Below are positions 9,640 through 62,379 of a stretch of 64,000 bases of DNA, piece by piece. The notes beneath the pieces are model-generated. The model searched no databases and had not been told where the DNA came from. It worked only from the letters and a program-made list of their open reading frames with translations. Numbering within the stretch: the first letter of the stretch is position 1; each line of letters starts with the position of its first letter. Where the stretch lies: positions 22,763-86,762 of the IMG/VR virus record IMGVR_UViG_3300033066_001904; one strand, given 5' to 3'. Origin of the DNA: a virus (taxonomy: Duplodnaviria; Caudoviricetes). The translations under genes were made by a program, and so were the position numbers.

Positions 9640-10316
9640 ATATATCCACCAGATGTTTTTATAGAACCAACTAAAGCATCTTTAATCCCTTTTATACCAG
9701 TTAAATTTCTAGCTTCAGTAATAGAATTATAAATTTTAATTTGATTATTATTTTTATCTAGTTGAATTATAGGTTTAGATTTTGCTAAAATACAATTTTT
9801 TCTATTGTTTTTAATAGCTAAAATCCATATATCTGTTTTTTTTATTTTTTTAAGTTTATTTGAAATTTTTTTCTTATGTTCTTCTGTTAATTTTATACCT
9901 TTTTTAGCTTCAGATATTTTTTCTTTCCATTCATTAGTATACATTTTATGTCCTTTTCTAGAATTAGACATTTTTTGTTTTATTTCTTTAGAAAGTTTAG
10001 TTCCTTTTTTAGCTTTAGATATTTTTTCTTTTGTTGTATTAGATAAACCAGAATTACCAAAAGGTTTATTAGTTAAATTATAAAAATTTTCATTATTAGC
10101 AGCATCGTAATATTTTAACCAATATTCTTCTTGTTTTATTAAATCTTGTTGATTTTTACATTCCTCTAATATTTCTTTTTTAAAATTTTCGCGACCATAT
10201 TCTTTAATAGCTTTTTTAAGTAAAGTACCACTTCCTAAGTAGTTAGGATTATTATTTGAATCTTTACCTATGTATTTCTTTCCGTTTATTAAATTTTTTG
10301 TAACATATATTATCAT
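9624..10316 (-). CDS. GIY-YIG homing endonuclease with NUMOD3 repeats and NUMOD1 domain
   Basis: MIIY...KKYIG, YLGSG, repeated TKEKISKAKKG, C-terminal YNSITEA...GGYIWKY. Confidence 0.9.
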   Translation of the reverse strand: MIIYVTKNLINGKKYIGKDSNNNPNYLGSGTLLKKAIKEYGRENFKKEILEECKNQQDLIKQEEYWLKYYDAANNENFYNLTNKPFGNSGLSNTTKEKISKAKKGTKLSKEIKQKMSNSRKGHKMYTNEWKEKISEAKKGIKLTEEHKKKISNKLKKIKKTDIWILAIKNNRKNCILAKSKPIIQLDKNNNQIKIYNSITEARNLTGIKGIKDALVGSIKTSGGYIWKYL

Positions 10317-10346
10317 GATAATAAATATATGACAATACTAAAAAAA

Positions 10347-11387
10347 TTAGCTACTATGCTCGTAATCTTTATTAATTATCTCTAATGTATTAAATACAGT
10401 ATATATCCAATTATCAACATGAGGGATAGAATCCCCTAATAAATCGGAATTGTACATAGTATTAAATGCTGACTTGTTTAGTCCATTAGATTCTTGTATA
10501 TTGTTTTTTATAATTTGTAAATTTTCTAATGAAATTGAAGTTTCCTTTAAATTCATTAATCTATTATTAATTTGAAGCTGATTTGATAACTCATTAATTT
10601 TTGCAAATAAATCATTATCTTTTTCTTTACTTGATTTCTCAAGTATTTCATGTAAATGAAATTTAGCTTCATTTTTTAGTTCAGGAAACATTTTTAATAA
10701 TTTTTTATCACCTAAACCTTTTATACCGGGAATATTATCTGATTTATCTCCTAAAAGAACTTTATACGCAATAAAATTATTAGGATGAACATTATATTCA
10801 TCTATAACATCATTTTGTTTATAAACTTTCTTTTTACTAGGAGAATATATTTGAGTTTTTTCTGATACTAATTGCAAAAAATCTTTATCAGCTGACATTA
10901 CAGTAATATTATTAGTATTAATGTTATCCTCATAAGTTCCTACTATGTTTCCTATTATATCATCTGCTTCTAAACCATCTATACAAATAATAGACAGTGG
11001 TAAGCATTTTAAATAGTGAATTAAACGTACTATTTGACTATGTATCGCTTCATTCTCTTCTTCCTTTGTTTTAAAGGAATCATAGTTAGTAATTCGATTA
11101 GCATATCTATTTGATTTATAAGCAGGAAATAAATTTCGTTTAGAAGATGAACCTCCAACTCCATCAAATACGATTATAACCTTTGTAGGATCTAATATTT
11201 TAATAGCATAACCTATAGATTTTAAAAATCCTACTAGACCACCTATATGGTGGCCGTTCGGATTTATCATGTTAATAACTGAGAAACATCTCAGAAATGT
11301 ATTTAAGCCATCTATTATGAGAATATTATTATCTATATGCTGTTTTTCACTTGTAATTTTTTCAAAAATGTTTTTATATTTGTTCAT
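10347..11387 (-). CDS. 5'-3' exonuclease / RNase H (FEN-like)
   Basis: IIDGLN, IIVFDG, YKSNR, EADDII, DKDFLQL, GDKSDNIPGIKGLG. Confidence 0.92.
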   Translation of the reverse strand: MNKYKNIFEKITSEKQHIDNNILIIDGLNTFLRCFSVINMINPNGHHIGGLVGFLKSIGYAIKILDPTKVIIVFDGVGGSSSKRNLFPAYKSNRYANRITNYDSFKTKEEENEAIHSQIVRLIHYLKCLPLSIICIDGLEADDIIGNIVGTYEDNINTNNITVMSADKDFLQLVSEKTQIYSPSKKKVYKQNDVIDEYNVHPNNFIAYKVLLGDKSDNIPGIKGLGDKKLLKMFPELKNEAKFHLHEILEKSSKEKDNDLFAKINELSNQLQINNRLMNLKETSISLENLQIIKNNIQESNGLNKSAFNTMYNSDLLGDSIPHVDNWIYTVFNTLEIINKDYEHSS

Positions 11388-18895: not shown

Positions 18896-19229
18896 GTGTA
18901 TTTTCTATTTTAACCCTCTTTTTTAAAATACCCCATATATATGCATTATTACTATTCTGCCATTTTCCTAAATTTTCAAAACGAGAATCATTTATCATTT
19001 CATCATAAAATTTTTTATCCGTAATATCATTTCCATAATATTCTCCATCTCCATTTATTGGAAATATCCGACAATAATATTCTGGGAAATGTTCAGGACC
19101 TGGACCTTGACCTCCATCCCAAAAAAATGTATGAATTTTTAAAAAAACCCCGTCACTTACCTTATATGCCATAAGGAGATTAGGATTATTTATACCAATT
19201 TCGGCTAATATGTTTGAAAATTTAATCAT
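18882..19229 (-). CDS. EIGxNxP-tagged protein (putative capsid-internal cargo)
   Basis: Starts MIKFSNILAEIGINNP. Confidence 0.7.
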   Translation of the reverse strand: MIKFSNILAEIGINNPNLLMAYKVSDGVFLKIHTFFWDGGQGPGPEHFPEYYCRIFPINGDGEYYGNDITDKKFYDEMINDSRFENLGKWQNSNNAYIWGILKKRVKIENTHEHI

Positions 19230-22105: not shown

Positions 22106-24196
22106 TTATGCGGTTTTATAGGAACCTTGTGTTAATAGGGTACCTACTTTTCTACCATCAAGATTAATAGTAGTATCTTTTTGATATAATCTATCTACAG
22201 ATGCTTTTACGTCGTTTATTGCTTTTATCATTGGAGATAAATCTACACCTGATGAACTTCCTTTATCAAATAAATTAGTACCTGCCACCACTGTATCTTT
22301 ATTATTTAATGCTATTGCTCCTTCAGGTCCTAGTAGTGTACGATTTCCATATCCTGGAGAAACAACATCATCTCCTTTAGTTAAATTTTCAATTCCTGCT
22401 CCTATTAATCCAATAGCTAATAGTCCTCCTAAAGCTGCTACAGGATTTAAAAATACAGCTATTGCTCCAACTAATAATGCTATTGTTTTTAATACACCCG
22501 CTAATCCTGTAAATGTACCTGTTATAGTGTCAATTAATGAATTTAACCATGAAAATGGTTTAGTTATATACGTCACTAAAGATAATATATCCGTTAATAA
22601 ATCTAATAATTGACCAAATGGTCCTTCTACTAGAGTTCCTACTATATCTTGTAATTTTAAAATAGCATTATTAAATTTTTCTTGTATATTTTGACGCTCT
22701 AAAGCCTTTTTAGCATCTTCTTCATTTAATTGAGCTAAAGATTTACCCGCTTGTAAAGCTTCTTCTCTACGTCTAAGTTGTTCTGCTAATTGATCTGCTT
22801 GTAAGCCAAAAGATTCTGCTAATGCCTTTTGAGCAATAACATTCATTTGAGCAAATTTAAAAGCATCAATTCCTTGATTAGCTATTTCTTGTGCTACTCC
22901 GGCTATATCACCTCTCAAAGCTAATTCTCTAGCTCTTTCTAAGTTTAATTGTTTACCTATTAATAATTCAGCTTTTAATTCACTTCCTATTGAAGATTCA
23001 AAATCTAATAAATAACTAGAAGTAGATTTAGCTTCATCTAAAGATTGACCTAATGCTTTTATTTGAGCAACACTTTTAGCAATCAATTCGGGATTATATC
23101 CTAAGTTTGCTGTTAGTTGTCCTGATACTTTTGCAACTTCCGCTAGTGTAGCTTTTAAAGGTAACCCTACTTTATATTGATTTGAAATAGCTACAATTCC
23201 TTTAACATATGAATTATAAATAGCTTCTGACGATTTACCTGTTAAAATAGATAATCTGTAAAATTGAGCGGCTTCATCGCCAGCTAAACCTACTTGTTTA
23301 GTTAATTTAACCTGTGTATTTAATATATCTTCTGAGTACTCAGATGTGTAACCAGTCGTTTCACTTATTTGTTTAAACGCATCTACTAAATTAGTTGTAG
23401 TAATGTTAATATTAGTTGAATCACGAGCTATTTTTCCTATATTATATCTATAGTCGTCAGTATTGGAACCCAATGATTTCCCAATTTCTGTTGATTGAGC
23501 TATAAATTTACTTGCTTTATCAACAATAAAACCTAAAGCTAATGCAGCCCAATTTATGCCTTCTAAAAATCCTTTTATTCCGGCTCCCCATATTTTAAAA
23601 ACACCACCACCCTCTTTAGCCTTATCAGTCATTGCTTCCATGGCTTTATCAAGATTAAGAACATCTCCTATAATAGGAATTTTCTTTAATCCTTTAAATA
23701 TTCCAAAAAGAGGTTGTAACTTTTTAGCAAAAACATCAAATTGTTTTAATTCTTCTTTTTGTAATTTAATAATATCCTCAATTGTATCTTTTTGTTCTTT
23801 TAATAATTCATTAAGATTAGATAATTCTTTTTTTCTTTTAGAATTAGTTGTTAACTCAATTTCTTTTTGTATAGCAGATATTTGACCTTCTAACGCCTTA
23901 GATAAACCTTCTTCAAGTTTTTTAATTTCTTGAGTAATTTTTTTACGAGACAATTCACCTTTAATTGCTTTACCAATTATACCATTTGTTCTAAGATAAG
24001 CATCCTGGATTTCGTTTATGTGTTTTCTAACACTTTTTAAAGTTTCATCTGTTCTAGCTTTTATAGATGTATTAATATTCTTTAGTTTAGTCATAATATC
24101 ACTAGCTGCATCTCTGAAAATTGCAGTTAACGATGATAACTCATCTTTAATATCATCAATATCTTGTTTGGGATCTAGGTTAGGATTAATTGCCAT
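22106..24196 (-). CDS. tape measure protein
   Basis: Long Ala/Leu/Lys/Glu-rich helical protein with a hydrophobic stretch, downstream of tube and chaperone. Confidence 0.8.
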   Translation of the reverse strand: MAINPNLDPKQDIDDIKDELSSLTAIFRDAASDIMTKLKNINTSIKARTDETLKSVRKHINEIQDAYLRTNGIIGKAIKGELSRKKITQEIKKLEEGLSKALEGQISAIQKEIELTTNSKRKKELSNLNELLKEQKDTIEDIIKLQKEELKQFDVFAKKLQPLFGIFKGLKKIPIIGDVLNLDKAMEAMTDKAKEGGGVFKIWGAGIKGFLEGINWAALALGFIVDKASKFIAQSTEIGKSLGSNTDDYRYNIGKIARDSTNINITTTNLVDAFKQISETTGYTSEYSEDILNTQVKLTKQVGLAGDEAAQFYRLSILTGKSSEAIYNSYVKGIVAISNQYKVGLPLKATLAEVAKVSGQLTANLGYNPELIAKSVAQIKALGQSLDEAKSTSSYLLDFESSIGSELKAELLIGKQLNLERARELALRGDIAGVAQEIANQGIDAFKFAQMNVIAQKALAESFGLQADQLAEQLRRREEALQAGKSLAQLNEEDAKKALERQNIQEKFNNAILKLQDIVGTLVEGPFGQLLDLLTDILSLVTYITKPFSWLNSLIDTITGTFTGLAGVLKTIALLVGAIAVFLNPVAALGGLLAIGLIGAGIENLTKGDDVVSPGYGNRTLLGPEGAIALNNKDTVVAGTNLFDKGSSSGVDLSPMIKAINDVKASVDRLYQKDTTINLDGRKVGTLLTQGSYKTA

Positions 24197-34429: not shown

Positions 34430-34779
34430 TATTTAAGATTTTGTTGACGTAATTTAACGTATTTATCTAAAGTATCTAAATCAGCTTTAGCTAAAGATAA
34501 TAATTTCATTATAGTTCCAGCTGTTTGTTTAATATTTTCATCATCGTGGAACATTTTATATGGAGCTAGTTCTGTTCTCATTTTAGACAATTGAGATTTC
34601 ATTCTACCAAAATTAGCTAAATTTTCAACTTTTTGAAATTCAGCTCCGGTACGGGGATCAGTCTCATTTGAACCTAATCTAAAGCCCTTGTCAATTAATT
34701 CCTGTTCGGAATCTTTTGCTTTGTATCCACGAGGCATTTGAGTATATACTTCTCTTACTATTTGTATTAATGTTTTCAT
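34429..34779 (-). CDS. hypothetical protein with tag-like N-terminus
   Basis: Starts MKTLIQIVRE. Confidence 0.6.
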   Translation of the reverse strand: MKTLIQIVREVYTQMPRGYKAKDSEQELIDKGFRLGSNETDPRTGAEFQKVENLANFGRMKSQLSKMRTELAPYKMFHDDENIKQTAGTIMKLLSLAKADLDTLDKYVKLRQQNLK

Positions 34780-35381
34780 TATATTTCTATTGTTTTAATA
34801 ATCTCTACATTTTGTTCAGGAATAACATATAAATATTCGTCTGACCCGTATGTATGTTTTTCTTTCTCTAATTTCATTAAAGGAAAATATTGTGATTTTT
34901 TTAATCTTTTTACATTAAATTCATCAAACCATTCATAATATATTTTATTTTTTTCATCATAATGAAAATAAAATTCATTATCTATTTGAATTACGTTTTC
35001 AGATTCCCACACACTAAGAATTTCTTTTGGATATAATACAGCTCTAATTTTATTAGGTATATTTACACCAATTTCATCTAATTTACCAACAATTTGAATT
35101 TGAGATTTAGGAATAATTAATAATATTCTATTACCATCCTGATATTTTTTAAACCATTTTTTTAAAATATTACTATCACCCTCATACTGATCATAAGTAT
35201 AATAATATCCTGGAATACAGTGGGCAGATATTGGTGTATTTCCATCAAAGCACAGAATATCAGTATCTTCGCCATAATCTTTTATAAGTATTGTACCGAG
35301 TAATTCATTACTTTCATATGCTTTTAACTTATGAGGATCGTTAATACCTATTTCACGTAATATATTTTTAAAAGTTATCAT
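34779..35381 (-). CDS. two-module EIGxNxP-tagged protein
   Basis: MITFKNILREIGINDP plus internal KLDEIGVNIP. Confidence 0.7.
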   Translation of the reverse strand: MITFKNILREIGINDPHKLKAYESNELLGTILIKDYGEDTDILCFDGNTPISAHCIPGYYYTYDQYEGDSNILKKWFKKYQDGNRILLIIPKSQIQIVGKLDEIGVNIPNKIRAVLYPKEILSVWESENVIQIDNEFYFHYDEKNKIYYEWFDEFNVKRLKKSQYFPLMKLEKEKHTYGSDEYLYVIPEQNVEIIKTIEI

Positions 35382-35923: not shown

Positions 35924-36283
35924 TTATTTTATATTGTGTAATATTATTAAAGCATTATTATACCCTAATCCAAGAGTAATGCAATATTTATAAAGATATG
36001 GTAAATCAAATGCATCCTCAGCACTATCCTCTACTTCAAAGACATAAATATCTTTTATAGTAAAATTATCATAATATAATTTAGCATATTTATCATTTTC
36101 ACTAGGATTTTCTATACTATCTCCTAAATCCTTCATGTAATATTTATAATTATCATAAAGATATAAATTCTGAATTAAAGCATACCCATCTTGGTCAGAA
36201 GTTGTAATATAATCTAAAATTTCCTTTTTAGTTATTGGTTTATTTATACCAATTTCAGGTAATATGTTTTCAAATTTAATCAA
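35924..36283 (-). CDS. EIGxNxP-tagged protein
   Basis: Starts MIKFENILPEIGINKP. Confidence 0.7.
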   Translation of the reverse strand: MIKFENILPEIGINKPITKKEILDYITTSDQDGYALIQNLYLYDNYKYYMKDLGDSIENPSENDKYAKLYYDNFTIKDIYVFEVEDSAEDAFDLPYLYKYCITLGLGYNNALIILHNIK

Positions 36284-36611: not shown

Positions 36612-36928
36612 TACATTTCCTTCTTTAAAATAGTTTTATATCTTGGCATAAATTGCATTAATCCTTTAATAGGAATTGCTTTCTTTTTTATCAAGTCTAT
36701 CTCTTCTCGGGGAGTTGAACTTACAACATATTTTACGTGTAATAAAGCAAATTCCCATTGAGGTGTTTTTTTAGTGTCTAAAAATGAATTTTGTTCTACT
36801 TTTACAACTACAACACCTTCTATTGCTCTTAATAAATTATATATTTCTACCTTATTAAAACGAGTATCTGTTTTAATTAAAACTTCACATTCAAATAGGT
36901 TTAATGCTTCTTTTAATATACTAATCAT
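36611..36928 (-). CDS. hypothetical protein with tag-like N-terminus
   Basis: Starts MISILKE. Confidence 0.6.
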   Translation of the reverse strand: MISILKEALNLFECEVLIKTDTRFNKVEIYNLLRAIEGVVVVKVEQNSFLDTKKTPQWEFALLHVKYVVSSTPREEIDLIKKKAIPIKGLMQFMPRYKTILKKEM

Positions 36929-37629
36929 TTATATTTCCATTTAAAATTTTTAGCAGATTGTATTCTTCCTTTAAGAACTTGACAAAGATGACCATTATCT
37001 ATCCCTAAACACATTGAAGCTTTTTTAGCACTTTCCCATTCACATATAAAATTTCCATTTAAATCATATTGTAAAATAGGTTTTTTAATCCAAACATGAT
37101 TTTTAAGTTTAAAAGGATTTTCCTTTTTGATTTTAGAAATTTTTTCTTTTGTTATATGATATTTTTTACCTTTTTTAGCTTGAGATATTTTTTCTTTTTG
37201 TTCTTTGGTAAATTTATATCCTAACGCATACTTATTTCCTATTTTTGATTGACCTATTTTTTGTTTTCTTTCTTCAGAAAATTTTTTACCTTTATTAGCT
37301 TTAGATATTTTTTGTTTTGTTTCTTCACTTTTAGGACCACTTCCTCTATCATATATTTCTGTAAATAAAATATTACTTTTATTTACTTTTTCTAAAAAAA
37401 ATTTTTTCCAATATATTTCTTTTTCATTTAATTCTTCTTTTGAACATTTTTCTAAAATTTCAAATTGGTGATTTTTAGGGCCATGATTTTTTAAAGAATT
37501 ATATAATTTTGGACCTATACTAGTTTTATGTAATTTTATATAATTATTCCATCTACTTTCAATATTAATAGATTGTCCTATATAAACTTTTTCTGAAGGT
37601 GACGTTATTTTATAAATTCCTATACTCAT
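36925..37629 (-). CDS. GIY-YIG homing endonuclease with NUMOD3/NUMOD1 domains
   Basis: GIYKITSPSEKVYIGQS, ETKQKISKANKG repeats, ILQYDLNG...WESAKKAS. Confidence 0.92.
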   Translation of the reverse strand: MSIGIYKITSPSEKVYIGQSINIESRWNNYIKLHKTSIGPKLYNSLKNHGPKNHQFEILEKCSKEELNEKEIYWKKFFLEKVNKSNILFTEIYDRGSGPKSEETKQKISKANKGKKFSEERKQKIGQSKIGNKYALGYKFTKEQKEKISQAKKGKKYHITKEKISKIKKENPFKLKNHVWIKKPILQYDLNGNFICEWESAKKASMCLGIDNGHLCQVLKGRIQSAKNFKWKYK

Positions 37630-39517: not shown

Positions 39518-40939
39518 TTATATATCTAGCATTTTTAAATTTCCTTTTGAATCATAACCAAAATTGTTATTGTGAACATCAATATATTTTTTATTTAAAT
39601 CTTTTAAAATATTGTGGATAAGAAGATATAATTTTTTATATTTTTCAAATAGTTCTGGGTTTTGTTGTGCAAATTCCTTAAATAGATCTTTGTAGTGAGA
39701 CTTCTCATAATCACCTGCATTGTACCATCCTCTTACTAAAGCATATGTCCATTCAGCTAAATCATGAGGACTTAAACTATAGTTTAATTTTTTTCTAATA
39801 AAATTAGAAATATTTAAAGCATCATCTTTAAAAGTTTCATCATCTAATTTTTCTAGAACAACATATTTGTCTGTTATTTTTTCAATTTTTGGAAAGTATT
39901 GAGGATATTTTTGAAATATGTTTATCCAATATGATGCATTATCTTTCGCTGCTTGATTTCTAAATGTTTTTATTACAAAATTTGGATTTTTTATAAATGG
40001 ATAAACTTCATGTTCTGAACCATTTTTAGAATTTTTACGTTGAATATCTAATTCATTTATATCTAAAAGATCTTTATCTTCATATTTTTCAACATGTTTT
40101 TGTAAATCTTGATATAAATTATAAACTTTTAATGACGACAAATACTTATCAACCCAATTAAATATGTTATCTTCGTTATATGGTTTATTAAAACCATATT
40201 TTCTTAATATATTAAAATATTCACGTGCTCCTGAGGCATCACATAATCCACTATGTATTTTATCTTTTATAAGTTGTTTTATTTTTTCATTTATATTAGG
40301 ATTATTTATACCTATTTCATCTAGTGAATCTTTAAATTTATTAAATCCTGTGAAATCTACATATTTAGCATCAAATATTATTTCATTTTCATTTATTACC
40401 TCGTAAGGTATATGATGCTTCTCTAAAAATTGTACAGCTGATTCAAAATATTTATCATTCCTAATATGAGTAACACTAAATTTAGAAGGTTTTCCCATAT
40501 TATAATAACCAAGATAAAAAAACTCTTGATAACCAAATTCATCCTCCGGATCTTTAAAATAAAAACATGATCTTTCCTGATTACGTGGTTTCAATATAAT
40601 GGGAGGTTTATTAACACCTATCTCTTTTAAATTATTAACGATCTGAACTCGATCTTTAGGAATACCATATGTAATATAATGTTCAGATTCTTCTAATATT
40701 TGACAGTATTTAAAATAGCGCCAATTTGTAAAATTAATAACATAATTAGGTTTAACAATGTGTTTACACCAATAACCATGAAATGGTTCACTCTTATTAT
40801 CTCCATCAAAAAAAAATTCATCATCTATTTTAATAAGTATACGATCATTATGATACCAATTATCTTTTTTTACAGCCTTTATTTTTCCTGGTGTATTTAC
40901 ACCTATTTCCTTTAAAATTTCTACAAATTTCAACTTCAT
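39518..40939 (-). CDS. multi-module EIGxNxP-tagged polyprotein with C-terminal kinase-like domain
   Basis: Three tags (EIGVNTP, EIGVNKP, EIGINNP); final module GSEHEVY...VIK...DVHNNNFG...MLD. Confidence 0.7.
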   Translation of the reverse strand: MKLKFVEILKEIGVNTPGKIKAVKKDNWYHNDRILIKIDDEFFFDGDNKSEPFHGYWCKHIVKPNYVINFTNWRYFKYCQILEESEHYITYGIPKDRVQIVNNLKEIGVNKPPIILKPRNQERSCFYFKDPEDEFGYQEFFYLGYYNMGKPSKFSVTHIRNDKYFESAVQFLEKHHIPYEVINENEIIFDAKYVDFTGFNKFKDSLDEIGINNPNINEKIKQLIKDKIHSGLCDASGAREYFNILRKYGFNKPYNEDNIFNWVDKYLSSLKVYNLYQDLQKHVEKYEDKDLLDINELDIQRKNSKNGSEHEVYPFIKNPNFVIKTFRNQAAKDNASYWINIFQKYPQYFPKIEKITDKYVVLEKLDDETFKDDALNISNFIRKKLNYSLSPHDLAEWTYALVRGWYNAGDYEKSHYKDLFKEFAQQNPELFEKYKKLYLLIHNILKDLNKKYIDVHNNNFGYDSKGNLKMLDI

Positions 40940-40961
40940 ATCAATAAATATAGATAAAGAA

Positions 40962-40983
40962 AGCCCAAGGTTACCCTTGAGCC
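40962..40983 (-). terminator. rho-independent terminator after major capsid gene
   Basis: GGCTCAAGG-GTAA-CCTTGGGCT followed by TTCTTT on the minus strand. Confidence 0.85.
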
Positions 40984-41006
40984 TCTTTTTATTGGTTTAA
41001 ATTAAA

Positions 41007-42629
41007 TTAAACTGTTTCTAATCCTGCAACATATATCTTTCCATAATAATCAGGACGAATCATCTTCTTAGCGTAACGAGTCATTAAACCTTTTCTTGGT
41101 GTGAAGGTTGAAGGATCGTAAAGAAGAGGAGTCATAATTAACGGAACATATGGTGCAAATACAGCTCCACATTCTAGGAATTGAGCTCCTTTATAACCCA
41201 TAAGAATTATATTCTCAGTCATATAAGGATTTTTGTATACCTTGTAACGACTATTTAGGCTACCAATTTTTTGCATACCAAAATTAAATTCCATTTTTTC
41301 ACCATCACCGTCTGAAGCAAATCCAGGGATTGATTCAAGAACAGTTGCTACTGTAGGTGAAGTTACTAAGAAATTAGCACCACCTCTTAAAGTTAACTGG
41401 TGGATTTTGTTTGATACTTTTTGTAGTTTAGTACCAATTGTTTGGAACCAACCACCTTGAGTATTGTAGAAACCACCTGTTGTAGCACTTGTTTGTGTGA
41501 ATGAACTACCATTCCATTGTTGGTTGTTTACTGCTGACCAGTAATCAACTGTAAATGCGTTCACAATTAACATGTCAAGTATTTCAAGATCAATTTCCAT
41601 TGAAATGTATTGAGATAAAATACCTGTTAATTCAGCTTCAGCATCAATGCTATGGTAAGCGTTAAGATCCTGAGCGAATTCTGGTGTCCATTGTGCCTTT
41701 AATTTACGTGTTTTGGCAGTAATAGATTCTGATTTTAACTGAACATTAATTTCAGCGATTGAAATAGGTTGTGCTTGTGAAATTTGTCCTGCACCTGCAC
41801 TTCCAAATGCATCTTCAAAGTCACCTCTTTGATCAGGAGCAGTTTGTTTATTATAGAATAAAGTAACTGAACCAGTTGGTGTAACTGAAGTAGCTGAAGT
41901 ACCACCTGCAATTAATATCAGGTTATTACCACTTTGAGAAGTAAATTGTTGTAAAATATCTGGAGATGTAACACCTGAACCAGATACTACAAATGATCTA
42001 ATATCAAATGTATCAAATGATGATGTAACTGCATTATAGTTAGTACCACTAACTGTAATTTTTACTAAGCTACCTGTATTGTAGTTAGTATCAAAATTAA
42101 TATCTGCCCAAGCAACTGAACTTGTAACATAAGTTACTGATGCAGTAGCATTGTTTAATGAATACGCAAATCTACCAGCTTCATAAAGAGAACCAGTTAT
42201 GATTGTAGTATTATTTGTGGCATTTGCTCCATAAAGTGAATCGCCTGATGCGAACGGAGCTCTGTTTGAACCATATTTGAAATCTAGATAGAATACTAGA
42301 CCAGAAGGTAGGTTCATGGGTTGAACTGAAACAAATTCTTTTGCTGCAATTTCTCCAAATACTCTACGTACAAGAGGAAGAGCTACACCTGCCCAGTTTT
42401 CTGAATTGTAACCTCCACCTGTCATAGATGTAGTACCACCGGTAATGTTACCTTCAGTGATTAATTGTTTAGCTTGGTTTTCAAGTAATACCGCTATTGT
42501 ATTACGCTCATTTTCAGTCTTTAAATTCTTTAAAAGACCTGATTTATCCCACTTAGAAGTAAGACGTTTTGCGTCGTCTGATACTTGCTTAAATTGGTTT
42601 GATGATTCTAATAATTGTTGAACATTCAT
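41007..42629 (-). CDS. major capsid protein (gp23-like)
   Basis: VSVQPMNLPSGLVFY, AKTRKLKAQWTPEFAQDL, FAPYVPL, TRYAK. Confidence 0.96.
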   Translation of the reverse strand: MNVQQLLESSNQFKQVSDDAKRLTSKWDKSGLLKNLKTENERNTIAVLLENQAKQLITEGNITGGTTSMTGGGYNSENWAGVALPLVRRVFGEIAAKEFVSVQPMNLPSGLVFYLDFKYGSNRAPFASGDSLYGANATNNTTIITGSLYEAGRFAYSLNNATASVTYVTSSVAWADINFDTNYNTGSLVKITVSGTNYNAVTSSFDTFDIRSFVVSGSGVTSPDILQQFTSQSGNNLILIAGGTSATSVTPTGSVTLFYNKQTAPDQRGDFEDAFGSAGAGQISQAQPISIAEINVQLKSESITAKTRKLKAQWTPEFAQDLNAYHSIDAEAELTGILSQYISMEIDLEILDMLIVNAFTVDYWSAVNNQQWNGSSFTQTSATTGGFYNTQGGWFQTIGTKLQKVSNKIHQLTLRGGANFLVTSPTVATVLESIPGFASDGDGEKMEFNFGMQKIGSLNSRYKVYKNPYMTENIILMGYKGAQFLECGAVFAPYVPLIMTPLLYDPSTFTPRKGLMTRYAKKMIRPDYYGKIYVAGLETV

Positions 42630-42661: not shown

Positions 42662-43831
42662 TTAGATAATGTTTGCTAGTTTTTGCATACGAGAAATAAC
42701 ATCATTAGACTCAACAATTTGTTTTCTAGGAGAAACTCCTAAAGCTTTTGAAGCAAATCCTAATGATTCTTTAACCATTTGTTTTTTATTATTTGCTTTT
42801 CCACCAATTGTTGTTTGAAGTGACTCATAAATTAATTTAGCTTCTTGAGTTGTTCTTGCTTTATCAAATGAAGCTAAAACTTTAACCTTTTGAGATTCAT
42901 TTAAATTTTGAGCTTTAAATATTTTATTTACATAAAGCATTTTAGCGTTAAATAAATTTACCTCATTTAGTTCAGAACGAAGAGTTTTGATTGTTTGAAT
43001 AGCTTTTGCTAATTCTTTTGATTCATTCATGTTTGTTTTTCCTACTTGTTTGTAACCTAATTTGCTTGTAGTAGCAATAGCTTTTTTACCAGCAGGCCAT
43101 TTTTGAATTTTTGCTTCTTCTAAATCTTCTTCTTCTTCATTTAAAGCGTCTAGTTCAGATAGTAATTCGTTAAGATCGAAATCATCTTCGTCTAAAGAAT
43201 CATCTTCTTCACCACCTATTGGAGGATTCATATCGTCACCGCCCATATCTGAACCGGCTCCCATATCGTCTCCACCCATGTCGTCCATTCCATCACCCAT
43301 ATCGTCGCCTCCTAGATCATCACCCATATCTGAAGCTCCCATTCCACCAGCTGATGCTATAACATCACTGATAAGATCTTTAAATTCTGCAACTGTTAAG
43401 CTGCTGATTTTTTCATCTTCTGGTGAAGATTCTTCTGAATGGCTTTGTTTTGGACTTGAATCCGATTTTGGTTTTGGTTTTGAATCTGATGAATCTTTCT
43501 TTTTAGGTGCTGAATCTTTCTTATCATCATCTTTAGCTTCGTCTAGTTCATCTTCATCATCTAGTTCAGCTAAGATAGAATTAAGATCGAAATCTTCTTC
43601 TAAACCTTCATCTCCATATGATGCATTATCATCCATCATTTCATCTAAGTTTTCATCTTGATTTTCATCAAGTTCTTCTTCTTCTTGTTCTCTAAGTTTT
43701 GCTGAGATCATTGATTGAATTTTTGGTGTTAATGCTTCTTCTAGAGCTGCTTTAGCGTTAAGTAAAGCTGCCTCACGAACTGCTTTTGCATCTGCAATAG
43801 CTTGTTCAAATAAACTTTTGTTTTTTGACAT
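42662..43831 (-). CDS. prohead core scaffold protein (gp22-like)
   Basis: Highly acidic middle with many L-x-E sites, LNEVNLFNAKMLY, ends RMQKLANII; directly upstream of capsid gene. Confidence 0.8.
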   Translation of the reverse strand: MSKNKSLFEQAIADAKAVREAALLNAKAALEEALTPKIQSMISAKLREQEEEELDENQDENLDEMMDDNASYGDEGLEEDFDLNSILAELDDEDELDEAKDDDKKDSAPKKKDSSDSKPKPKSDSSPKQSHSEESSPEDEKISSLTVAEFKDLISDVIASAGGMGASDMGDDLGGDDMGDGMDDMGGDDMGAGSDMGGDDMNPPIGGEEDDSLDEDDFDLNELLSELDALNEEEEDLEEAKIQKWPAGKKAIATTSKLGYKQVGKTNMNESKELAKAIQTIKTLRSELNEVNLFNAKMLYVNKIFKAQNLNESQKVKVLASFDKARTTQEAKLIYESLQTTIGGKANNKKQMVKESLGFASKALGVSPRKQIVESNDVISRMQKLANII

Positions 43832-43978: not shown

Positions 43979-44251
43979 CTAGGAATTTAGAGAATTTAAT
44001 AATTTTAGCAAATCATTATATATTAGTTGTAAAGTTTTAGGAGATAGTTTGTCTAACTGATATTGAAAATCGCTATAGTCTAAATTATATTTGTTAATTA
44101 TATCTGAAACACTAGTATATTCATCAGGTAGCCAAAAATTATAATATTTAGGATGTCTTTGAATTTTGTGCTCTAAATCTTTAATTTTTTCTGGAGTTAC
44201 GCTAGGAATATTTACTCCTATTTCGGCTAATATTTTGCGAAATTTAATCAT
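43979..44251 (-). CDS. EIGxNxP-tagged protein (helical module)
   Basis: Starts MIKFRKILAEIGVNIP. Confidence 0.7.
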   Translation of the reverse strand: MIKFRKILAEIGVNIPSVTPEKIKDLEHKIQRHPKYYNFWLPDEYTSVSDIINKYNLDYSDFQYQLDKLSPKTLQLIYNDLLKLLNSLNS

Positions 44252-44882
44252 TTTTATCCGGGCATAGAGGACATATGCCTGTCATGTTACATATGATCTC
44301 GGTAATTAAAGTATGAACTTTTTGATATTTGTTATAACCATTATTATATATTTTACCTTCTTTTAAAGAATTTCCTGCTCTTCTCATAAAGGCGTTTGGG
44401 GTAGATGGAACGGACACTAAATCCCAACATAGTAGATCAAAATCATCTTGAACTTCTACAGCTTCTCCCATTTGTTGGACAGATCCCATACCTCTTGAAG
44501 ATATTCCCAATGGAATACCTGCTAATACTAACTCTTGTGCTATTTTACCTGACGGTGTATTTAATAATAGTAATTCTCCCATAAGATCATTACCTTCCCA
44601 CCATATTTCTGTAATAAGATGTGATACATTTGATAAATTTATTATAGTAGCATCAGGGTGGTCTAGTTCTCCCATAGAATTTTTATTAGCTATGGGTCCT
44701 TTTACATATTTTTCTGCTTCTCTAGCTAAAACATCACGAGGGTATACACGACCATTTCCATTTTTTTGTTCTGCTTCTTGTAATTTACCTCTAAGACGTA
44801 TTCTTCCATCATTTCCTCTTCCTTCAGAAAGAACTAATTTAGCGTCACTATGGTATGTATAATCTACTAGTAATTGTTTCAT
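44244..44882 (-). CDS. prohead protease (gp21-like)
   Basis: NGNGRVYP, GELDHP, GISSRGMGS, WDLVSVPS. Confidence 0.93.
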   Translation of the reverse strand: MKQLLVDYTYHSDAKLVLSEGRGNDGRIRLRGKLQEAEQKNGNGRVYPRDVLAREAEKYVKGPIANKNSMGELDHPDATIINLSNVSHLITEIWWEGNDLMGELLLLNTPSGKIAQELVLAGIPLGISSRGMGSVQQMGEAVEVQDDFDLLCWDLVSVPSTPNAFMRRAGNSLKEGKIYNNGYNKYQKVHTLITEIICNMTGICPLCPDKND

Positions 44883-46367: not shown

Positions 46368-47597
46368 TTATTTTCCTTTTAAAGTGGCTAAACTTTTATC
46401 TTTATAGCTACTAATATTTTTTACTCTACCTTGAACAACTTCTAAAGTCCAATTATGAACTTGATCTATTCCTGCATTTTGTAAAACTAACACATCACCT
46501 TGTTTACCTGTATTATCTCTAACAAATACATCATATGTTCCATTAGGTTTAGCGTGAAGAACTACAAATCCTGTAATTTCATTGTTAACTATCATTTGAC
46601 GGAATAAACCATATTCATTTACATAGTAAACATCTTTAAAGTCAGGTGAAGTTTGTAAAATTTTCCAACCTTCTTTTCTCATTTGGTCTCCCATATTTTT
46701 TAAAGGAGAATATATGGTATCTACTATGGTAGGTACTTTATATAAAGTGTCTTTTTCTGCTTTAGATAACTTTGGAGATAATATTAAAGCAGCTATAATA
46801 GATGCTGTTAATAAACCTTTTTTAGAATATTCTTTAATTTTAGTTAAAACACGTTTAAAATCAACAGATTCTTGTAAATTTCCCAATATATCGTCCACAA
46901 TAGCTTGTTCTTGATTGCTGTCTTCTTGTAAAGATTTCATCTTTTCATTTAAAGAAGCCATCATTTCTGAAATTTGTCCAACAAATTGTTGGGTTTCTTT
47001 CCAATATTTAATACCATCACCTTCTGATAGTTCTTGTTTCATTTTAGAAGTATATTCAACTATACTGTCAATTTCTTGAAGTCTTTTTTTAACTTGTTTA
47101 ATTGCTCTATTTAATTGTTCATTTTTTGAACGATATGATATACTTTGTTTAAATTGTTTAAATGAATTTTCTTTTAACAATTCACTTTTAATAATTTCGT
47201 ATATTTTATCGTGTTGACATGAACATTTTTCTTTTCCTTTGAATGCTTTAGGAGTAGAATAGGCTCCTACATCACCTGATGTTGAACCTTCATCTTCTTC
47301 TAAATTAGGATTAAGTTTATTCCAAGTTTTTACTAAATCATTATAAAGTTTATTTAATTTAATGGAATCCAAAGCGGAAAGCCATTCATCATAATCGTCA
47401 TCAGGATCGTAACCATATGACATAGCTATTTTATCTACGCTTATATCATTTTCTTCATCATTCAAAACAGTATATGATATTTTTTTTGATAATTCATATA
47501 CTTTTTCTGGAGTTATAGAAGGACTATTTACTCCTATTTCTTTAAGGATAAATTTATTAATATATTCTTTTAAACTATTTGGCATATTTAACTTCAT
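46368..47597 (-). CDS. head-associated protein with N-terminal EIGxNxP module
   Basis: FILKEIGVNSP, later STSGDVGAYSTPKAF and several L-x-E sites. Confidence 0.6.
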   Translation of the reverse strand: MKLNMPNSLKEYINKFILKEIGVNSPSITPEKVYELSKKISYTVLNDEENDISVDKIAMSYGYDPDDDYDEWLSALDSIKLNKLYNDLVKTWNKLNPNLEEDEGSTSGDVGAYSTPKAFKGKEKCSCQHDKIYEIIKSELLKENSFKQFKQSISYRSKNEQLNRAIKQVKKRLQEIDSIVEYTSKMKQELSEGDGIKYWKETQQFVGQISEMMASLNEKMKSLQEDSNQEQAIVDDILGNLQESVDFKRVLTKIKEYSKKGLLTASIIAALILSPKLSKAEKDTLYKVPTIVDTIYSPLKNMGDQMRKEGWKILQTSPDFKDVYYVNEYGLFRQMIVNNEITGFVVLHAKPNGTYDVFVRDNTGKQGDVLVLQNAGIDQVHNWTLEVVQGRVKNISSYKDKSLATLKGK

Positions 47598-58076: not shown

Positions 58077-58611
58077 TATATCCTGGTATTTTTAACAATG
58101 CTAATATATTATTTTTAGAATTATGAATATAAAACATATTTTTTGCTTTTCGTCTTTCACTTTCACGTTTATTAGGGCTTAAATTTTGTGGTAAAGTTTT
58201 AAGAAAATCTATATATTTTTCCCAATCTGTGTGTCCCATTATATTATGTAATTGAATTTTTGCATATCTTGAATATACTAATGTTTGACCAGCCATTGGA
58301 GATTGTGTTTCTCTTCTAGAGAGCATAATTGGCTCTCCATCTACTTTAGCAGTAATATAATATGAATTACGAGCTCTTTCAGAATGCTCTACTATTACTC
58401 TTTCAGGTTTAACACCTAAAATTCCAAAAAATTGCTCAGCATTTCTTTTAGTTATACTAGATAATATCTTTTTTTGTAAAGCATTATCCCAACTAAATAC
58501 CTCAGCTTGACCCTTTGTACTCTTATTAATATGTTTAAATTTACCTAACTGTAGGTTAAAAGCAGGTTTATTTATACCAATTTCGCATAATATTTGCTTA
58601 AAAGTCATCAT
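58063..58611 (-). CDS. EIGxNxP-tagged protein
   Basis: Starts MMTFKQILCEIGINKP. Confidence 0.7.
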   Translation of the reverse strand: MMTFKQILCEIGINKPAFNLQLGKFKHINKSTKGQAEVFSWDNALQKKILSSITKRNAEQFFGILGVKPERVIVEHSERARNSYYITAKVDGEPIMLSRRETQSPMAGQTLVYSRYAKIQLHNIMGHTDWEKYIDFLKTLPQNLSPNKRESERRKAKNMFYIHNSKNNILALLKIPGYNDNI

Positions 58612-61945: not shown

Positions 61946-62379
61946 GGAATCATTTTAAATTCACCCGCTTTTACGGGTATTATTAGGCGTATTCTGTCTT
62001 GTACAGATACTTTTACTCTACCTGGACCACATACTTTATCAAAGTATGATTGAATTTTTTGTTTTACAATTTTACGTATAGACTGTACAGGTTTGATATA
62101 AGTAGATTTAAAATTAGGATCTCTTCTTCGACTAAATTTATCTCTATAATATTCATTCCATCCTAGTCCTATTTTTCTATACCCTAAACCATAAAATTTA
62201 TATGAATACCCACCTATTACTTTATCAGTATATGCTAAGTTCAGCTGATTTTTTTCATACCATGTTTTCATAGTATCATTTTCATCAGGATCTATAAATG
62301 TTTCAGGATATATTTTATATAAAAATTTATTAGGATCATTAATACCTATTTCTTGTAAAATTTGTTCAAACATTATCAT
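61942..62379 (-). CDS. EIGxNxP-tagged protein
   Basis: Starts MIMFEQILQEIGINDP. Confidence 0.7.
   Translation of the reverse strand: MIMFEQILQEIGINDPNKFLYKIYPETFIDPDENDTMKTWYEKNQLNLAYTDKVIGGYSYKFYGLGYRKIGLGWNEYYRDKFSRRRDPNFKSTYIKPVQSIRKIVKQKIQSYFDKVCGPGRVKVSVQDRIRLIIPVKAGEFKMIP

Follow-up and report, generated by a model that had tools for sequence, protein, structure and literature searches.

The stretch of DNA analysed here, called the window in the following, comprises 64,000 nucleotides (positions 22,763 to 86,762) of the IMG/VR virus record IMGVR_UViG_3300033066_001904, an 86.8-kb contig that is estimated to be 52% complete. The window has a GC content of 29%, and on its minus strand structural genes of a T4-like phage follow one another in a long series. 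One of the genes on this strand is the open reading frame (ORF) P0001 (39518..40939, minus strand), which encodes a protein of 473 amino acids (aa) composed of four modules set apart by tags of the form L-x-E/IG[VI]NxP (here and below, the slash stands after the glutamate of the tag). Module 4, residues 296–473 (39521..40054, minus strand), is a truncated protein-kinase-like domain as judged by family search, AlphaFold2 (AF2) modelling, structure matches and hhalign comparison to the T7 kinases, and is the subject of this report. It corresponds to the final 178 codons of P0001, which are followed by the stop codon at 39518–39520. A preliminary description had assigned the module to 39518–40055; its in-frame start lies at 40054, a trivial offset, and the plus-strand translation of that interval is full of stops.

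Kinase motifs and predicted fold

The preliminary description had listed five kinase motifs in this module. All of them were located within residues 296–473 of the minus-strand ORF and are conserved in alignment A1, which comprises 97 sequences that are 25–40% identical to the query and to which the following counts refer. The equivalent of the Gly-rich loop, KNGSEHEVY (residues 305–313; 40001..40027, minus strand), includes G307, which is found in 95/97 sequences. In the motif FVIK (residues 321–324), K324 (39968..39970, minus strand) is the equivalent of the ATP-binding lysine of strand beta3, with Lys in 95 sequences and Arg in the other 2. The segment PKIEKITDKYVVLEKL, which had been taken as the hinge, represents residues 350–365, and the beta5/hinge region was placed at YVVLEKLD (residues 359–366; 39842..39865, minus strand; strand 64–68 of the domain model), where E363 and L365 are each present in 91/97. 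The stretch IDVHNNNFG (residues 453–461) holds the catalytic loop D454-V-H456-N-N-N459 of the type D-x-H-x-x-N (39563..39580, minus strand); D454 is invariant, H456 occurs in 79/97, and position 459 holds Asn in 73 sequences and Gln in the other 24. Finally, the beta7–beta8 hairpin FGYDSKGNLKMLDI (39521..39562, minus strand) contains the metal-binding D472 (97/97), the equivalent of the Asp in DFG or DPV and the penultimate residue of the protein, as well as K469 (92/97), both within the terminal KMLDI (residues 469–473) that directly precedes the stop codon. Taken over the whole domain, D454 and D472 are invariant, and G307, K324, P346, F349, E363, L365, G461 and K469 are conserved to at least 90%. 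The catalytic lysine and the catalytic Asp are 130 residues apart, and another 18 residues separate the catalytic Asp from the Mg-binding Asp. Judged from the sequences, this motif pattern is far beyond chance.

Modelling with AF2 on the basis of alignment A1 yielded a domain with a pLDDT of 91.3 and a pTM of 0.87, consisting of an N-lobe of five strands and a helix, four further helices and a terminal short beta hairpin. The minimal protein-kinase-like fold that had been proposed was borne out by comparison with known structures, since Foldseek and VIA-align both returned protein-kinase-like matches, and together with the AF2 model they place the Gly, the Lys, the hinge, the Asp/His/Asn and the metal-binding Asp as expected. 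When searched against the PDB with Foldseek, the model matched best to APH(2''), MKK4 and MLKL (best E 5e-5), and all listed matches were kinases of this fold. In a VIA-align comparison with 48,161 representative chains, 49 of the best 50 matches were protein-kinase-like enzymes with Z values of 6.9–8.7, among them the minimal kinases NleH1, OspG, HopBF1, Bud32, Rio1/2 and ArkI; these Z values are middling on the tool's own scale, and the weight lies in the uniformity of the matches and in the end points of the alignments. A second structural comparison reached a best Z of 9.8 (CDKL1). In the alignments, residue 178 of the model, its last, falls on residues 146 of CDK2, 155 of PLK4, 383 of LCK, 166 of ULK1 and 665 of Mps1, which we take to be the Phe of the respective DFG motifs, so that D472 sits on the DFG Asp. 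A sequence-profile search of the PDB gave marginal matches, namely NleH1 over the Gly-loop and the lysine (E 0.015) and phosphorylase kinase from the catalytic loop up to residue 168 (E 0.25). Taken together, the models and structure matches make it almost certain that residues 296–473 form a protein-kinase-like fold.

The full-length protein was modelled with a pTM of only 0.46; confidence was low for residues 1–295, and the kinase part reached pLDDT values of 85–98. Thus, the packing of the modules against each other cannot be inferred from this model. Helices were predicted over the leader segments, including a leader helix at residues 2–11.

Relatives in metagenomes and kinship with the T7 kinase

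A search with the 178-aa domain in a library of 1.84 billion proteins identified 190 representative proteins at E<=1e-3, of which 25 were found at E<=1e-10. Most relatives are stand-alone proteins, and the median length is 192 aa. Among 149 representatives, 143 end with D-x-COOH and 139 with the pattern [KR]-x-x-D-x. The abrupt end right after the DFG equivalent, which had been noticed in P0001, is therefore a hallmark of the family and not a truncation of this particular gene. All members originate from metagenomes, none has a Pfam domain, and they are named 'hypothetical' at most. With a closer alignment of 11 sequences, no locus was found in 185,579 species genomes, and the same alignment detected 15 viral loci. 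The three large records with a homologue of the kinase all encode gp23 and an S77 protease; two of the three are complete genomes (160 and 172 kb). The domain belongs to a large unnamed, metagenome-only family of AT-rich T4-like phages. A homologue search with full-length P0001 at similar length returned only P0001 itself, a tblastn search of P0001 against GenBank phages gave no match, and paralogues of the kinase domain were not found within the phage record. In two IMG/VR contigs with 21–22% GC (L015, at 9902–11103, and L017), two genes of the kinase family lie in tandem; the copies in L017 are apparently split into shorter ORFs.

The preliminary description had referred to the T7 gp0.7 kinase (T7K) as a phage kinase acting on host proteins, and this comparison turned out to be more than an analogy, as the family is detectably related to the T7 kinases by profile–profile comparison. 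Alignment of A1 with the single T7 gp0.7 sequence by hhalign resulted in a probability of 90%, and alignment with A3, which comprises six Autographiviridae kinases, in 93.5% for a local match over the N-lobe. When the alignment threshold was lowered or the global mode was used, the probability rose to 94.5–95% (E 7.5e-8 and 8.7e-9) for an alignment spanning residues 7–178 of the domain and 71–214 of T7K. In these alignments, G307 pairs with G76, K324 with K93, D454-V-H-N-N-N with D195-M-H-S-G-N200, and D472 with D213 of the DPV motif, and the spacing of 18 residues between the two Asp residues is identical. Among the 97 members, two matched the PHROGs annotation 'kinase' and two the T7-type protein kinase phrog_15752 (7e-4); P0001 matched neither. 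In the protein atlas, the domain lies among unnamed viral clusters; in one of these neighbouring clusters, 17% of the members carry Phage_T7_kinase, and matches in BFVD include kinases of T7-like phages.

T7K is experimentally established as a promiscuous anti-defence kinase that disarms many bacterial defences by mass phosphorylation; Asp213 of its DPV motif is the DFG equivalent, and its G76F mutant is catalytically dead (PMC13645617). T7K and the P0001 family have in common that they occur in phages only, carry a helical insert ahead of the catalytic loop, and lack a canonical C-lobe or activation loop. T7K differs by about 60 additional N-terminal residues, by about 30 residues with autophosphorylation sites behind DPV, and by a C-terminal DNA-binding shut-off domain (PMC13645617), whereas the P0001 family ends with L-D-I-COOH and has no shut-off domain. 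Moreover, T7K is an early gene of Autographiviridae and is classified in PHROG 2828/15752 and Pfam Phage_T7_kinase, whereas P0001 is situated among structural genes of late type in a T4-like phage. On the evidence of the profile alignments, the family is a distant relative of T7K, in the sense of kinship and not of membership by a family model.

A similar reduction has been described for the kinases of phage polyvalent proteins (Kinase-PolyVal, PF18762), in which the whole C-terminal subdomain is lost (Iyer et al. 2017, PMC5512222). Like the P0001 family, they retain the active-site residues and occur in multidomain or stand-alone form, and they are predicted to be packaged (PMC5512222). However, the PF18762 model found nothing in the phage record at E<=10 and was not among the families matched by at least two of the 97 members. 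The Gln in the last N-lobe strand and the insert between the catalytic His and Asp, which are features of Kinase-PolyVal, were not seen either, as position 363 is Glu in 91/97 and D-x-H is contiguous. Furthermore, the phages and prophages from which Kinase-PolyVal was reported are those of Verrucomicrobia-Chlamydia and Bacteroidetes and do not include T4-like phages (PMC5512222). Since the Pfam model finds nothing and the diagnostic residues differ, the P0001 family was set apart from Kinase-PolyVal and is treated here as a separate unnamed family which follows the same principle and is related to T7K.

Small kinase folds without an activation loop are also known from NleH1/2, OspG and HopBF1 (160–200 aa), which resembled the model with Z values of 7.1–7.8; NleH1 was the best sequence-profile match to the family in the PDB, albeit with marginal similarity. 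Unlike the P0001 family, these effectors are delivered by type III secretion and act on eukaryotic hosts, and they keep at least 30 residues past the Mg-binding Asp. A Pfam scan of the 97 members gave weak matches to the kinase clan, i.e. YrbL-PhoP_reg (11 members), PIP49_C (6) and ABC1 (2). For YrbL-PhoP_reg (PF10707), the best member had an E of 5.1e-5, and one member scored 16.4 bits against a cut-off of 31.5 bits. For E. coli YrbL, hhalign assigned a probability of 4% over 29 columns of the Gly-loop. The family departs from the aminoglycoside phosphotransferase (APH) and choline-kinase type in that the pattern H-x-D-x-x-x-x-N is absent and nothing follows the Mg-binding Asp; the similarity in fold is real.

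Module tags, proposed delivery and alternative explanations

P0001 begins with the capsid-targeting-like leader MKLKFVEILKE/IGVNTP (40889..40939, minus strand). Related tags recur inside the protein, where LKE106/IGVNKP (40604..40630, minus strand) marks the boundary between modules 1 and 2 and LDE208/IGINNP (40298..40324, minus strand) that between modules 2 and 3. In front of the kinase, the degenerate junction INE296/LDIQRK (40034..40060, minus strand) corresponds to the leader end ILKE/LNIKPK of stand-alone relatives, and E296 and K302 are conserved in 91/93 and 87/94 sequences, respectively. Stand-alone relatives start with the same kind of leader, for example MIKLVDILKE/LNIKPK, and the position of their conserved Glu peaks at residue 10 (21/91).

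These tags are not confined to P0001. The window contains 17 copies of the pattern [LIVM]-x-[ED]-[ILV]-G-[ILV], distributed over 13 minus-strand ORFs between 18882 and 62379, with tags starting near 62358, 61651, 61237, 58590, 56046, 55585, 47546, 44230, 40915, 40630, 40324, 36590, 36262, 35360, 35081, 19797 and 19208 (all minus strand). The consensus comprises 16 residues, M-[IT]-K-F-x-x-I-L-x-E-I-G-[VI]-N-x-P; its Glu lies exactly at residue 10 in 10 of the 13 tagged ORFs, and the sequences behind the tag are mostly unrelated. Module 1 of P0001 (residues 12–106; 40604–40906) is 29% identical to module 2 (residues 104–200) of the tagged ORF 34779–35381. Four relatives of the N-terminal modules (P0151–P0154) contain the same modules in varying number and order, always joined at the tag, and they repeat or combine module 1, which ends with ...YGIPKxQVxIV. 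In another phage lineage (L003/L004, 7457–12657), a kinase homologue and at least five of its neighbours share the leader MKIILSEEQLKxxIxE, so that leader families apparently vary from one phage group to another.

For entry of the T4 internal head protein IPIII into the head, its first 10 residues are sufficient, with residues 4 and 7 responsible for targeting and residues 8 and 10 directing processing by gp21 (PMC9026906). As in the internal head proteins of T4, the leaders of ten ORFs in the window are hydrophobic at positions 4 and 7 and carry L/I-x-E at 8–10, whereas that of P0001 is shifted by one residue; the payloads behind the tags are mostly unrelated, and this phage encodes homologues of T4 gp21, gp22 and gp23. 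In contrast to T4, the tag recurs inside ORFs between modules and includes the conserved stretch IG[VI]NxP after the Glu. A precedent for a host-modifying enzyme delivered by capsid targeting is T4 Alt, and to our knowledge T4 carries no kinase cargo.

The head genes lie close to P0001. The gene for the major capsid protein gp23 (41007..42629, minus strand; Pfam Gp23, 1.4e-77) is located immediately upstream and has a candidate propeptide site LITE/GN (I-T-E, which is also of the I-x-E type). It is followed further upstream by the gene of an acidic scaffold-like protein (42662–43831) and that of a gp21-type prohead serine protease of the Peptidase_S77 family (44244..44882, minus strand; Pfam 8.6e-26, phrog_207 9.6e-52). 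Between protease and scaffold, roughly at the position of the small core proteins of T4, a tagged ORF of 90 aa was found (43979–44251, minus strand) that shares 34% identity with the tagged N-terminal portion of an upstream ORF of 409 aa (46368–47597, minus strand). A terminator-like hairpin followed by a U-rich run (40956..40988, minus strand; dG -18 kcal/mol, z -4.0, none of 200 shuffled sequences folding as well) lies between gp23 and P0001 and would reduce expression of the downstream genes relative to the capsid protein. Four metagenomic relatives (P0141, P0126, P0149 and P0110) carry the kinase domain fused behind an ART-PolyVal ADP-ribosyltransferase, ParB_N, a domain with an HExxH motif and a CxxC zinc-ribbon-like segment; ART-PolyVal and ParB_N are typical of packaged polyvalent proteins (PMC5512222).

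From these observations, a mechanism might be envisaged in which the domain, made up of an N-lobe, a hinge, a four-helix segment, a catalytic loop and a Mg-binding Asp with nothing beyond, would bind Mg-ATP and transfer phosphate, most likely to proteins. As it has neither an activation segment nor a regulatory C-lobe, its activity would be constitutive and its specificity loose, like that of T7K. The four-module precursor would enter the prohead core via its tags, which imitate the T4 layout of capsid targeting and gp21 sites (hydrophobic residues, L-x-E), and the S77 protease of the phage would cut after E11, E106, E208 and E296. The resulting kinase of about 20 kDa would then be ejected together with the DNA and act on host proteins ahead of phage gene expression. 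A virion-delivered kinase that phosphorylates host defence or transcription machinery before phage genes are expressed, as envisaged in the preliminary description, would be in line with this scheme, and packaging and cleavage can reasonably be inferred from the tags and the S77 protease. The individual parts of the scheme differ in strength. The domain is probably an active Mg-ATP phosphotransferase, as suggested by its conserved residues. By analogy to T7K, loosely specific and unregulated action on protein substrates has about an even chance of being correct, and loading into the capsid, cutting by the prohead protease and injection are possible, with confidence somewhat short of even. Overall, a minimal phosphotransferase domain that is carried as virion-delivered cargo is the favoured reading, to which we give roughly equal chances of being right or wrong. 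Its most far-reaching form, in which the family would be the shortest active protein-kinase fold seen and would act before phage gene expression as a capsid-loaded, protease-released and injected broad anti-defence kinase, is rather doubtful. Within the literature searched, no experimentally shown virion-packaged phage kinase was found.

Several observations weigh against the favoured reading. No family was matched when whole P0001 was compared with Pfam and PHROGs. Regarding catalysis, the first glycine of the loop is replaced by Lys in P0001 (position 305 is Gly in 68/97), and helix alphaC (residues 329–344) has no conserved acidic column among the 97 sequences, the best being Glu in 26/97, so that a canonical Lys–Glu pair is not evident. 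The activation segment and the alphaF–alphaI core of the C-lobe are absent, the protein stops one residue past the Mg-binding Asp, and we know of no kinase this short that has been shown to be active. It is the missing alphaC Glu and the lack of a precedent at this length that limit our confidence in activity, though the catalytic Asp residues are invariant. Regarding delivery, the leader of P0001 has 11 instead of 10 residues, the I-N-E junction before the kinase is degenerate, and further [LIVM]-x-E sites are also present elsewhere inside the kinase domain. In 13 of 91 stand-alone relatives (about 14%), the Glu lies at residues 2–5, which leaves them almost leaderless and without a leader of targeting length, and in the two complete T4-like genomes the homologue is located 25–30 kb away from the head genes; both findings weaken the case for delivery.

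The same leaderless relatives speak for an alternative in which the protein would be an active kinase that works late in the infected cell without being packaged, with the tag serving, for example, as a helical linker or as a recombination junction. Homologues situated among replication-type or tail-type genes in other phages are consistent with this, as is the terminator-like hairpin that parts the gene from gp23, and the shuffling of modules at the tag in P0151–P0154 fits recombination at a conserved junction. However, the exact N-terminal position of the tag, with its Glu at a fixed residue in most tagged ORFs and mostly unrelated payloads behind it, is more readily explained by a signal in the protein than by a junction in the DNA. 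Moreover, the tag agrees in layout with the T4 capsid-targeting sequence position by position, and the protease and scaffold genes flank a small tagged ORF. A late kinase that stays in the cell is thus considered unlikely, without being negligible.

The substrate of the domain might also be something other than a protein, i.e. a small molecule, lipid, sugar or nucleic acid, as is known for the aminoglycoside- and choline-type kinases and for ArkI, a tRNA kinase of archaea. The best Foldseek matches in the PDB are APH(2'') enzymes, and the ArkI RNA kinases superpose with the lowest rmsd (2.3 A over 108 residues, Z 8.0). The spacing between the lysine and the catalytic Asp (146 residues in APH(3')-IIIa and 94 in PKA) is nearer to APH than to PKA, and D-x-H-x-x-N with a His is the form typical of enzymes of the APH/choline-kinase type. 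On the other hand, there is no C-terminal helical substrate-binding subdomain of the APH type, because the protein ends at the Mg-binding Asp, and no His is found two residues ahead of D454, where position 452 is Tyr, Phe or Ser in the 97-sequence alignment. T7K, a protein kinase, is the only family with a significant profile match, the K-x-x-D before the final Asp agrees with the consensus of eukaryotic-type protein kinases, and the VIA-align scores of protein kinases equal or exceed those of APH. A non-protein substrate is therefore regarded as improbable. A pseudokinase, serving as an ATP-binding or structural module such as a component of the prohead core and devoid of catalysis, would account for the missing alphaC Glu, the extreme truncation and the presence of MLKL and ULK4 among the best structural matches, but is very improbable, since pseudokinases usually lose catalytic residues and the catalytic and Mg-binding Asp are invariant across these divergent sequences, with Lys, His and Asn/Gln also kept.

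Kinases of phages, truncated forms of them, and capsid targeting of the T4 type were each known before. What appears to be new is a large unnamed family ending at the Mg-binding Asp, its kinship with T7K, and its combination with capsid-targeting-like tags in T4-like phages. T7K has to be transcribed first; a kinase that is ready-made in the virion, if this holds true, would work while the infection is at its most vulnerable, and kinases would be added to the few phage enzymes, such as T4 Alt, that are injected. The family also offers kinase biochemistry a natural experiment on the minimum of the fold that catalysis requires, as about 190 sequence clusters keep every catalytic residue and lack all that lies past the DFG Asp. 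Neither Pfam nor PHROGs nor isolate genomes contain the family, which therefore also marks a gap in the annotation of marine and environmental T4-like phages.

Minor features of the window

Downstream, P0001 is adjoined by a PhoH gene. A gene for a homing endonuclease of the GIY-YIG/NUMOD type (36925–37629, minus strand) was found amid the structural genes. The T4 late-promoter consensus TATAAATA is not enriched in the window (35 occurrences versus 25.8 expected). In four tags with the sequence E-I-G-I-N, the codons GGT ATA AAT AAx spell this consensus within the coding sequence (40298–40324, 19187–19194, 36241–36248 and 58569–58576, all minus strand), which may reflect AT-rich codon use only.

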